Source: a virus (taxonomy: Duplodnaviria; Heunggongvirae; Uroviricota; Caudoviricetes). Taken from it: a DNA stretch of 23,925 bases. Position numbers and translations under genes: made by a program. The notes under the pieces are model-generated. The model did no database searches. It saw only the letters and a program-made list of their open reading frames with translations, and was not told the DNA's origin. The stretch's first letter is position 1. Every line of letters starts with the position of its first letter. Shown in pieces: positions 14,215 through 15,621 of this stretch. The DNA lies in the IMG/VR virus record IMGVR_UViG_2654587569_000016; one strand, given 5' to 3'.

Positions 14215-14412
14215 ATGCTAAAACAGCAGGATATGACCGAAACTGCCAGAGTGGTGTTTAATGAGTTAAGCGTCACCGAACCGGCGACCGTCGGGGAAAT
14301 TGCGCAGAATACTTACCTTTCACGCGAGCGCTGCCAGTTAATACTGACCCAGCTTGTTATGGCGGGTCTGGCCGATTATCAGTTCGGTTGTTACAGACGC
14401 CTTCCTCAGTGA
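14215..14412 (+). CDS. Small winged-helix protein, PapI/FaeA-like
   Basis: 65 aa from the ATG at 14215; segment TVGEIAQNTYLSRERCQLILTQLVMAGLADY resembles PapI-type regulators. The longer ORF-track start would span the terminator hairpin. Confidence 0.5.
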   Translation: MLKQQDMTETARVVFNELSVTEPATVGEIAQNTYLSRERCQLILTQLVMAGLADYQFGCYRRLPQ

Positions 14413-14562
14413 AGGTTTTTTAATTTGTGGTAATGGGCGGCTGGTGGGTGTTAGCGGCACCTGCCAGCCATCTGCCCATGCGTTGGAATCACAAGCAAAC
14501 CTCAGGCCCATCTGCTTTGCGCAAAAGCGGTATGAGCCTATCAGAGAAGTGCTTATTGATCT

Positions 14563-15621
14563 ATGGTTAATACTGTAAAAATATCCAGTTGTGAGTTAAT
14601 CAACGCTGATTGCCTGGAATTTATCCAGACTTTACCGGAAAACTCTGTCGATCTGATAGTCACAGACCCGCCATACTTTAAAGTGAAGCCCGAGGGCTGG
14701 GATAACCAGTGGAAGGGCGACGATGATTACCTGCAATGGCTGGAGCAGTGTCTGGCGCAGTTCTGGCGGGTACTGAAGCCTGCCGGAAGTCTTTACCTGT
14801 TCTGTGGTCATCGCCTGGCATCTGACACCGAAATCATGATGCGTGAGCGCTTTAATGTGCTGAACCACATTATCTGGGCGAAGCCGTCCGGACGCTGGAA
14901 CGGGTGCAATAAGGAAAGTCTGCGGGCGTATTTTCCGGCAACAGAACGCATTCTGTTTGCAGAACATTATCAGGGACCGTATCGCCCGAAAGATGATGGC
15001 TATGTGGCACAGGAGCGCGAGCTAAAACAGCACGTCATGGCCCCGCTGATTTCTTACTTTCGTGATGCGCGTAAATCACTGGGAATAACGTCAAAACAGA
15101 TAGCGGAAGCCACCGGAAAGAAAAACATGGCTTCGCACTGGTTTGGTACCAGTCAGTGGCAGTTACCGAACGAGGGTAATTACAACAAATTGCAGGCGTT
15201 GTTTGCGCGTGTTGCGGCAGAAAAACATCAGCGCGGGGAACTGGAAAAGCCACACCACCAGCTGGTCAGCACATACAGTGAACTGAACCGTCAATACGCT
15301 AGCCTGCTGGAAGAGTTCAAATCTTTGCGACGTTATTTTTCCGTATCAGCTGCCGTTCCGTATACGGATGTCTGGACGCACAGGCCCGTGCAGTATTATC
15401 CGGGCAAACATCCCTGTGAAAAACCGGCGGATATGTTGCGGCAGATAATTGAGGCCAGCAGTCGCTCCGGTGATTTGGTTGCCGACTTTTTTATGGGTTC
15501 AGGTTCAACGGTAAAAGCGGCGATGGCACTGGGGCGTTGTGCGATTGGTGTTGAGCTGGAGACCGAACGTTTTGAGCAGACAGTCAGGGAAGTTCAGGAT
15601 TTAATCGTTTGGAACGGATGA
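14563..15621 (+). CDS. Beta-class N6-adenine (or N4-cytosine) DNA methyltransferase, apparently orphan
   Basis: 352 aa; catalytic motif DPPY near the N-terminus and AdoMet-binding FMGSGST near the C-terminus; no endonuclease recognised nearby. Confidence 0.85.
   Translation: MVNTVKISSCELINADCLEFIQTLPENSVDLIVTDPPYFKVKPEGWDNQWKGDDDYLQWLEQCLAQFWRVLKPAGSLYLFCGHRLASDTEIMMRERFNVLNHIIWAKPSGRWNGCNKESLRAYFPATERILFAEHYQGPYRPKDDGYVAQERELKQHVMAPLISYFRDARKSLGITSKQIAEATGKKNMASHWFGTSQWQLPNEGNYNKLQALFARVAAEKHQRGELEKPHHQLVSTYSELNRQYASLLEEFKSLRRYFSVSAAVPYTDVWTHRPVQYYPGKHPCEKPADMLRQIIEASSRSGDLVADFFMGSGSTVKAAMALGRCAIGVELETERFEQTVREVQDLIVWNG

Follow-up and report, generated by a model that had tools for sequence, protein, structure and literature searches.

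A predicted two-state leader RNA precedes an M.EcoGII-family adenine methyltransferase gene in the late region of lambdoid prophages

The stretch of 23,925 nucleotides (nt) analysed here, in the following referred to as the window, comes from the virus record IMGVR_UViG_2654587569_000016 (Caudoviricetes) and contains, as judged from gene annotation, Pfam and ARAGORN, the left part of a lambdoid prophage. Downstream of its late antiterminator gene Q and of a DUF4236 gene it carries a small open reading frame (ORF), followed by the gene of a DNA methyltransferase (Table 1). The original prediction, made from the sequence alone, had singled out this pair as a PapI-like regulator ahead of an orphan DPPY methyltransferase of the beta class. 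Both genes are indeed found at the positions assigned to them, and the small ORF bears the marks of selection acting on a translated sequence. The pair as such is a common prophage cassette whose small protein had been mislabelled, and between the two genes lies a conserved structured RNA that had gone unnoticed.

Table 1. Features of the late region and of the leader RNA, in window coordinates
Feature	Position	Strand	Evidence or remark
Late antiterminator Q gene	12155-12520	+	Pfam Phage_antitermQ PF06530, E 2.6e-51, full length
DUF4236 gene, variable cargo between Q and the late promoter	12688-13875	-	PF14020, E 7.2e-20
Putative late promoter pR'	14009-14036	+	-35 TTTACA 14009-14014, -10 TATGCT 14031-14036; consensus scan, 9/12 matches
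Intrinsic terminator tR'	14070-14091	+	CCUGCC/GGCGGG stem and U run; RNA fold of 14030-14110
Conserved non-coding block CTTGCTG-N17-TAT..G..TATGTCAC	14153-14190	+	Kept in most of 26 species-level loci, whatever the Q type
Small winged-helix protein gene, 65 amino acids, PHROG 331	14215-14412	+	phrog_331, E 1.4e-37
Hairpin T2, stop codon of the small ORF in the loop, then U-rich run; terminator-like	14399-14422	+	Terminator scan
Methyltransferase leader RNA, predicted two-state	14424-14562	+	Covariance models; pair counts on 85 distinct copies
Leader segment a	14433-14439	+
Leader hairpin P2	14439-14469	+
Leader segment b	14473-14479	+
Leader segment c	14487-14497	+
Leader segment d	14505-14510	+
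Leader hairpin P4	14514-14528	+
Leader segment e	14531-14538	+
Leader segment f	14551-14562	+
M.EcoGII-family beta-class N6-adenine DNA methyltransferase gene, 352 amino acids	14563-15621	+	Pfam N6_N4_Mtase PF01555, E 3.6e-44
tRNA cluster, anticodons CAT, TCG, TCT	15662-15905	+	ARAGORN and Rfam tRNA; downstream, same transcription unit

In the window, 150 nt separate the small ORF from the methyltransferase gene. The distance from stop codon to ATG hardly varies, being 142-154 nt, mostly 149-150, in 24 of 26 species-level loci; the two loci left out of this range have a small ORF that is prematurely truncated in one case and start-less in the other. The spacer is far more conserved than the synonymous sites of the flanking genes and contains long invariant runs. 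Two covariance models built in this study find one match per locus, always on the plus strand and ending five bases inside the methyltransferase gene, with E-values of 1e-17 to 1e-40. A coding function of the spacer, including a coupled upstream ORF, was considered and is excluded because one-base insertions and deletions differ between clades; furthermore, the methyltransferase frame meets an early stop and an overlapping ATGA is not conserved. Read-through producing a fusion of both proteins was rejected likewise, as the spacer lengths are not all multiples of three. Many conserved G-U pairs, which would be A-C on the minus strand, place the structure on the transcribed plus strand and speak against a structure on the other strand or in DNA only.

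When nine divergent copies are folded singly by minimum free energy, they arrive at a common structure, fold A', which is thermodynamically favoured and combines the six segments as (a-b)(c-f)(d-e). Its 5' hairpin is made by segment a (AUGGGCG) and segment b, atop helix P2. The second domain is closed by helix P6, in which segment c, G(G/A)UCA-C-AAGC, pairs with segment f, GCUU-AC-UGAUCU, immediately 5' of the AUG. Enclosed by P6 are the helix Palt2, formed by segment d (GGCCCAC) with segment e (GUGAGCC), and the small hairpin P4. In fold A' the last 6-12 nt in front of the AUG are paired to a segment that lies about 70 nt further 5'. In fold B the partners are exchanged to a-d (P1), b-c (P3) and e-f (P5), which yields a three-way junction with UGAUCUAUG left unpaired.

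Both folds were evaluated by explicit pair counts over 85 distinct leaders. Fold A' has 89.6% of its cells paired and both-side changes in 18 of 41 pairs, fold B 87.0% and 19 of 37 pairs, compared with 26-43% (A') and 34-40% (B) in the slid controls. Covariation supports the helices P2, P3, P6 and Palt2. Three consecutive pairs of P6 alternate between A-U, G-C and G-U in 20-34 sequences, one pair of Palt2 is GC in 50, AU in 18 and GU in 17 sequences, and in P3 both sides change in five of eight pairs, two of these in 34 and 38 sequences. Segment c shows covariation with each of its two partners. RNAalifold, applied to a large alignment, recovered P1 and P2 only; the other helices come from the single-sequence folds and the pair counts. 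For the column counts of P6 a sequence-only MAFFT alignment (A8) was unusable and was dropped, because the register differs by two bases between clades, and a pairing-probability test was used instead. This test needs no alignment and gives, for 60 leaders, a mean probability of 0.85 that bases -6 to -2 are paired to the upstream segment, versus 0.06 after shuffling of the upstream part. By these comparisons the leader possesses two mutually exclusive conserved folds, one of them occluding the translation start, as is typical for a riboswitch-like element with two states; the sequestration of the AUG-proximal bases is a prediction of the folding model.

A GATC, that is a Dam site, is invariant at positions -5 to -2 of the methyltransferase ATG (14558-14561), and in a Providencia-like clade the pairing partner some 70 nt upstream likewise reads GATC. 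The RNA pairing in helix P6 explains the conservation of this motif, although Dam may have a role at the DNA level as well.

Rfam 15 contains no family that matches the leader, either in the window (E<=10) or in four divergent copies searched at E<=1. Rfam recognises the tRNAs alone in the window stretch, and four sub-threshold matches to small RNAs or leaders in two other loci (L168 and L006) fall off the leader. An earlier description of the leader was not found in the searchable literature either. It appears to be an undescribed element and a candidate new cis-regulatory RNA.

The gene that follows codes for an enzyme of the M.EcoGII family. The motif order, TDPPYF at residues 34-39 (DPPY 35-38) and FFMGSGST at 309-316 (FMGSG 310-314), is that of the beta class, and among solved structures those of beta-class enzymes such as RsrI and CcrM come closest. 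Aligned with M.EcoGII, 303 of 350 residues are identical (87%), with two gaps and over the full length including the central recognition domain; the reference sequence was taken from a machine-read PDF (Supplementary Table S1 of PMC11551740), so that a few positions may be misread. The window enzyme shares with M.EcoGII and M.EcoGI, which come from prophages of E. coli O104:H4 (PMC5778455), the N-terminal DPPY, the central recognition domain, the C-terminal FxGxG and the location in a lambdoid prophage. M.EcoGII itself is encoded by a prophage and methylates adenines without sequence specificity; the lysogen does not express it, and its expression does harm (Murray et al. 2018, PMC5778455). 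It methylates RNA too (PMC5778455), and methylation of both DNA and RNA is also seen with reconstructed ancestral enzymes of the family (PMC11551740). A 2025 review groups M.EcoGII with Mom of phage Mu as a toxic modification enzyme that is silent in lysogens. Judged by the 87% identity and by the position behind the terminator tR', non-specificity, toxicity and silence in the lysogen may be expected of the window copy as well.

No restriction endonuclease accompanies the methyltransferase, as the original prediction had it: the neighbouring genes show no nuclease or defence profile in Pfam and PADLOC, and PADLOC recognises the methyltransferase alone. Its suggestion of an anti-restriction self-methylation module fits the known traits of the enzyme family, and by analogy with these late anti-restriction hypermethylation would be the best-supported role of the methyltransferase. 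A Shine-Dalgarno sequence is absent at its start codon; the mean energy of pairing between Shine-Dalgarno and anti-Shine-Dalgarno sequence is 0.0 kcal/mol here versus -4.4 kcal/mol for the small ORF. The published study of M.EcoGII cloned the ORF alone, and the upstream leader and small ORF are not described there (PMC5778455). The same work names phage 1720a-02 as carrier of a very similar gene (PMC5778455). In that phage we find the identical arrangement of small ORF, leader and methyltransferase gene, located directly upstream of stx2A, the methyltransferase being 93% identical to M.EcoGII.

The cassette is widespread. No fewer than 2093 of 5426 complete E. coli genomes contain at least 80% of it, and so do 359 phage records, many of them Shiga toxin (Stx)-converting. 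The small ORF is located upstream of an M.EcoGII-like methyltransferase in 23 of 24 species-level loci (25 of 26 together with two annotated reference loci) and in 172 of 178 loci overall, a sample biased towards close relatives. Such a pairing in the compared sequences is far beyond chance. A further sample of 75 loci was drawn with a reconstructed ancestral methyltransferase as the query; here the small ORF is present in 44 loci and missing from 31. Among the latter, 29 have the full leader abutting the ATG, and three more loci of this kind were contained in the earlier sample. The comparison of loci thus identifies T2, leader and methyltransferase gene as the core, and the small gene with its upstream block as a frequent optional insert between tR' and T2. 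Since many phages keep leader and methyltransferase without the small ORF, the small protein appears dispensable.

Two kinds of deviating loci deserve mention. In a distant clade (L169-L185, for example L171 347-437) the methyltransferase is about 66% identical and the small ORF is present, with a spacer of only 85-102 nt. This short spacer keeps only the 5' hairpin (AAUGGRYGGCUGG...CCAGCCAUU) and is without segments c, d and e, and its match to the covariance model is weak, with E-values of 1e-3 to 0.03. In locus L020 (4001-4305) the small ORF is followed by a leader with decayed 3' end and the methyltransferase gene is gone downstream, which looks like a deletion remnant.

The small ORF is preceded by the Shine-Dalgarno sequence AAGGG. 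Mechanical gene calling joins it as distal part to a 126-codon ORF (14032-14412), which adds 61 codons 5' of the conserved start and spans promoter and terminator. The phrog_331 profile, 111 positions long, matches the small protein from position 35 on, and the versions of 93-106 amino acids in the databases probably carry a false extension back across the late promoter and terminator. Compared with 15 orthologues from about fifteen genera, the proportion of non-synonymous differences (pN) is 0.09-0.39 and that of synonymous differences (pS) 0.65-0.95 in most of the between-genus comparisons, with synonymous sites largely saturated. By this measure the small ORF is a real coding gene under purifying selection. 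An exhaustive HMMER search of 1.84 billion representative proteins returned 61 hits only, mostly short proteins of the same narrow family, two of the 61 being weak matches in large repetitive proteins. The named homologues and the genome loci belong almost all to the Enterobacterales. An earlier description of the small protein was not found in the searchable literature.

AlphaFold2 confidently models the small protein as a winged helix, three helices followed by a beta hairpin, with a pLDDT (predicted local distance difference test) of 90.3. That much of the original prediction is borne out, and the third helix, RCQLILTQLVMAGL, is nearly invariant among proteins otherwise 53% identical. A small single-domain winged helix is, nevertheless, a trait generic to the whole winged helix-turn-helix (wHTH) superfold, and the proposed membership in the PapI/FaeA group did not survive the profile check that had been asked for. 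The FaeA profile (PF04703) finds genuine PapI, its sequence verified against PDB 2HTJ, at 5.5e-32 but not one of 25 family members at E<=1. The hhalign comparison of the family with PapI gives a probability of 1.3%, a phmmer search of the small protein against the PDB was negative for PapI/FaeA, and the PapI structure 2HTJ is absent from the top 50 Foldseek matches of the model. PapI/FaeA membership is ruled out by these negative results.

What Foldseek does return are generic winged helices at E-values of about 1e-3 to 1e-2: N-terminal domains of O-methyltransferases, IclR, MarR/OhrR, SelB bound to SECIS (selenocysteine insertion sequence) RNA, and Z-alpha. Closest in structure are the winged-helix domains found in methyltransferases (RedM, E 9.8e-4), and the best superposition is obtained with the DNA-binding domains of IclR/MarR (2g7u, TMq 0.82, E about 2e-3). 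Sub-threshold Pfam matches are to DprA_WH (25 of 25 members, best E 7e-6), TrmB (25 of 25, best E 3e-4) and MarR_2 (19 of 25). The small protein is most likely a nucleic-acid-binding accessory regulator of the cassette.

The position of the cassette is that of a first cargo in a lambdoid late operon: behind Q follow a promoter-like site and a hairpin with U run, and the lysis and terminase genes lie downstream. The putative promoter pR' would start transcription near 14043. Its hexamers and the downstream block TGTTAAGAGTGGT are kept in the loci sharing the same Q type, whereas several loci with other Q types have a different promoter-like sequence, again with a GC hairpin and T run behind it. 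In the promoter-region alignment, most related loci have a GC-rich hairpin and a run of T at the tR' position. This corresponds to the standard layout of pR' and tR', with a constitutive promoter and read-through that requires Q (PMC7547250). On this layout the cassette sits directly 3' of a Q-dependent late promoter and terminator and ahead of tRNAs and lysis genes, and a short terminated transcript of about 48 nt (14043-14091) would be expected. Such a transcript, with TGTTAAGAGTGGT in its 5' part, would be the counterpart of the lambda 6S RNA and of StxS, the regulatory small RNA of Stx phages (PMC7547250). The window resembles these phages in the succession of Q, promoter, short transcribed region, strong intrinsic terminator and then cargo or lysis genes; it differs in the DUF4236 cargo between Q and the promoter and in having the methyltransferase cassette as the first cargo after tR'. 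Another viral contig (L168 1924-2136) has, 5' of its small ORF and in the late-promoter region, a stretch that matches the Rfam model of STnc560, an Hfq-binding small RNA of Salmonella, below threshold (28 bits versus a gathering score of 55, E 0.023).

Two further elements lie between tR' and the leader. The conserved block ahead of the small ORF may represent a promoter or an element of the 5' untranslated region. The hairpin T2 is retained with compensatory changes across genera, and a hairpin is also found at its position in five inspected loci without the small ORF. T2 may act as a second terminator ahead of the leader, and a ribosome completing the small ORF would melt it.

We propose, with a probability of roughly 0.6, that the locus represents a conserved late-operon cassette of lambdoid prophages, including Shiga-toxin prophages, in which a late anti-restriction methyltransferase of the M.EcoGII type is gated by a two-state leader. 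The methyltransferase would be transcribed only when Q antiterminates in lytic growth, because its gene is located immediately 3' of a Q-dependent promoter and terminator. It would then hypermethylate the progeny phage DNA late in infection, which could lead to escape from adenine-sensitive restriction in the next host. As the enzyme is expected to be toxic, its expression would be gated post-transcriptionally as well. Fold A' would be the off state, since the bases just before the AUG are paired, and stray transcripts would stay untranslated; a shift to fold B would free the bases next to the AUG and permit translation late in infection. Such a shift might be triggered by the small protein in the manner of Com, by a metabolite, by the methyltransferase itself, or by co-transcriptional folding with the Q-modified polymerase. 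The small protein would figure here as a lineage-restricted winged helix inserted between the late terminator and the leader.

Several points weigh against this proposal. The covariation statistics are inflated, since each alignment behind the pair counts had been fitted to one of the two folds and since many of the sequences are closely related. The helices P1 and P1alt show one compensatory event each, and fold B keeps positions -14 to -8 paired. A constitutive damping structure alone would explain the occlusion of the AUG, with no switch. The assignment of the folds to on and off is our own inference, and the assignment of the promoter rests on consensus matching and conservation. Non-specificity of the window methyltransferase is extrapolated from an enzyme that is 87% identical. 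As to the small protein, it is slightly acidic in net charge and its third helix is largely hydrophobic, which is atypical of a strong nucleic-acid binder; and because the leader is conserved without the small ORF, an obligatory effector role is disfavoured.

The closest functional analogue is found in the com-mom operon of Mu and in the operons of Mu-like prophages in which a com-like gene is combined with a non-specific adenine methyltransferase (hin1523, Hia5; PMC3299994, PMC6483171). Like these, the cassette pairs a late and presumably toxic modification enzyme with a small upstream gene, and in com-mom translation of the modification gene is blocked by RNA structure at its start (PMC3299994, PMC6483171), as is predicted here. 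The differences are substantial, too. Com is a zinc finger, whereas the small protein, a winged helix, is unrelated to Com in sequence and has no zinc-finger match. Furthermore, com-mom has a single inhibitory stem, whereas the leader is about 140 nt long, has two full alternative folds and persists without the small gene. Going further than the proposal above, one might regard the leader as a new class of bistable RNA, either riboswitch-like or a sensor of a protein or of polymerase speed, which licenses translation of a toxic N6-methyladenine methyltransferase only in lytic growth, with the winged-helix protein as its trans effector in some phages and hence a non-homologous analogue of com-mom. 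We put this forward tentatively, as possible rather than probable.

Among the other explanations the best surviving one, although in our view unlikely, takes the small ORF for an independent gene of the 'moron' type, encoding a DNA-binding transcription factor with its own promoter in the conserved upstream block and ending at T2. It could be expressed in the lysogen and repress the cassette or other targets. The promoter-like block does accompany the small ORF and was not seen in the inspected loci lacking it; a terminator-like hairpin is located at the stop codon, the RedM winged helix and the IclR/MarR DNA-binding domains are the structures mentioned above as nearest and best superposed, and the weak Pfam matches are all to wHTH regulators. 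However, the -10 candidate of the block ends in G in the loci inspected, a poor match to sigma-70, and a repeated operator for the small protein was not found, the leader motif occurring once only in the window. The motif CAGAGTTA, shared by the upstream block and the leader loop, was considered as such an operator and discarded, as it is not conserved across clades. The family is encountered almost exclusively beside an M.EcoGII-like methyltransferase, which suggests a dedicated rather than a general role. In the position of a small gene for a DNA-binding-type protein upstream of a methyltransferase gene the cassette also resembles the C proteins of Type II restriction-modification systems; unlike these, with their Xre-type HTH, their C-boxes and their function in timing the endonuclease, it has no endonuclease and no Xre-type fold, nor was a repeated operator found.

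Next comes, likewise improbable and a shade more so, a control resembling that of Com over mom, by which the small winged-helix protein binds the leader RNA, for instance at hairpin P2 or segment a, shifts it from fold A' to fold B and so activates translation of the methyltransferase. In Mu and the Mu-like operons a small gene lies directly upstream of the toxic modification gene, just as here, and the start of the methyltransferase gene is predicted to be occluded by RNA structure and has no Shine-Dalgarno sequence. The tight synteny of both genes, the near invariance of the third helix in proteins of 53% identity elsewhere, and the SelB winged helices bound to an RNA hairpin among the structural neighbours point the same way. 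They are countered by the loci that possess the full leader and the methyltransferase without the small ORF, by the unrelated folds of zinc finger and winged helix, by the net acidic charge of the protein and by the generic nature of the structural matches.

More doubtful again is the explanation that the leader is a riboswitch for a ligand such as S-adenosylmethionine or S-adenosylhomocysteine, or an autoregulatory operator bound or methylated by the methyltransferase, the small protein being irrelevant. The two exclusive covarying folds, the three-way junction of fold B with its conserved junction bases, and the presence of the leader beside the methyltransferase gene even without the small ORF would suit such a role. 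So would the activity of M.EcoGII on RNA noted above, and the recovery of prophage DNA methyltransferases among the RNA-associated proteins of enterohaemorrhagic E. coli. Yet of the 38 columns that are unpaired in both folds only ten are conserved to at least 90%, the element is unlike any riboswitch class known to Rfam 15, and the clade with the 85-102-nt leader retains the 5' hairpin alone.

The methylation-dependent epigenetic switch suggested originally, a form of phase variation in which a PapI-like protein cooperates with the methyltransferase, is largely refuted by the profile tests and has become very improbable. In its favour one may count the fold, since PapI and FaeA are likewise single-domain winged helices of small size and, through their action together with Lrp and Dam at the pap GATC sites, belong to a system that involves adenine methylation, as well as the invariant GATC, the second GATC upstream of it in some clades and the Dam dependence of mom transcription in Mu. 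The GATC bases are, however, accounted for by the pairing in P6, and the genes lie not at a fimbrial or other regulatory promoter but in the late operon of a phage, between Q and the lysis genes. A site-specific switch sensitive to methylation is unlikely also because the close relative M.EcoGII methylates every adenine, being non-specific and not of the Dam type.

The weakest of the alternatives, that the DUF4236 gene, adjacent and divergent in the window and in 13 of 5426 E. coli genomes, is an unrecognised restriction partner of the methyltransferase, is refuted by its distribution, as the gene is absent from 186 of 186 related loci and at least 2093 of the 5426 genomes carry the cassette without it, as its slot holds other genes in other phages, and as it lacks any match to PADLOC, defence-system or nuclease profiles and belongs to a separate transcription unit, located before the late promoter and on the other strand.

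If the proposed gating is correct, a leader that hides the start codon in one of two states would offer a concrete mechanism for the silence of enzymes of the M.EcoGII type; M.EcoGII is widely used as a tool enzyme for footprinting of chromatin and RNA. The leader is a candidate cis-regulatory RNA for prophages of E. coli, Salmonella, Klebsiella and Providencia and is found in roughly 40% of the complete E. coli genomes. In many Stx-converting phages the cassette lies between the late promoter and stx; therefore, T2 and the leader would be transcribed together with the toxin genes and might affect how much toxin is made. For annotation it follows that the small ORF cannot confidently be called PapI-like or 'TrmB family regulator'.

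Turning to the remainder of the window, the early genes follow in the order integrase, CI-like repressor, Rha/Ash-type genes, and then DnaD-like, DnaC-like and DnaB replication genes. After Q come the DUF4236 gene, the small ORF, the methyltransferase gene, three tRNAs and a TerB-like ORF, and 3' of the latter a holin gene, DUF1327, an endolysin-like ORF, an Rz-like ORF and terminase. Between Q and the late promoter, positions 12521-14008 form a slot for variable cargo: phage phiP27 has a gene of the GIY-YIG nuclease family there on the plus strand, and E. coli E94 the porin gene ompC on the minus strand (L001 3531-4760; L002 3650-4747). By this comparison the DUF4236 gene is cargo that lies outside the cassette. 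The tRNA trio occupies the position that ileZ, argN and argO have upstream of stx in the Stx phages; the window is without toxin genes. The reading frame of the TerB-like ORF looks split, as 16004-16135 encodes an N terminus beginning MFGIFGKK and 16198-16494 matches TerB in another frame, and it may be a frameshifted pseudogene. Finally, in the early left region, between integrase and repressor, a gene of the SPFH/Band 7 family is located on the minus strand (2439-3266), possibly as lysogenic-conversion or defence cargo.

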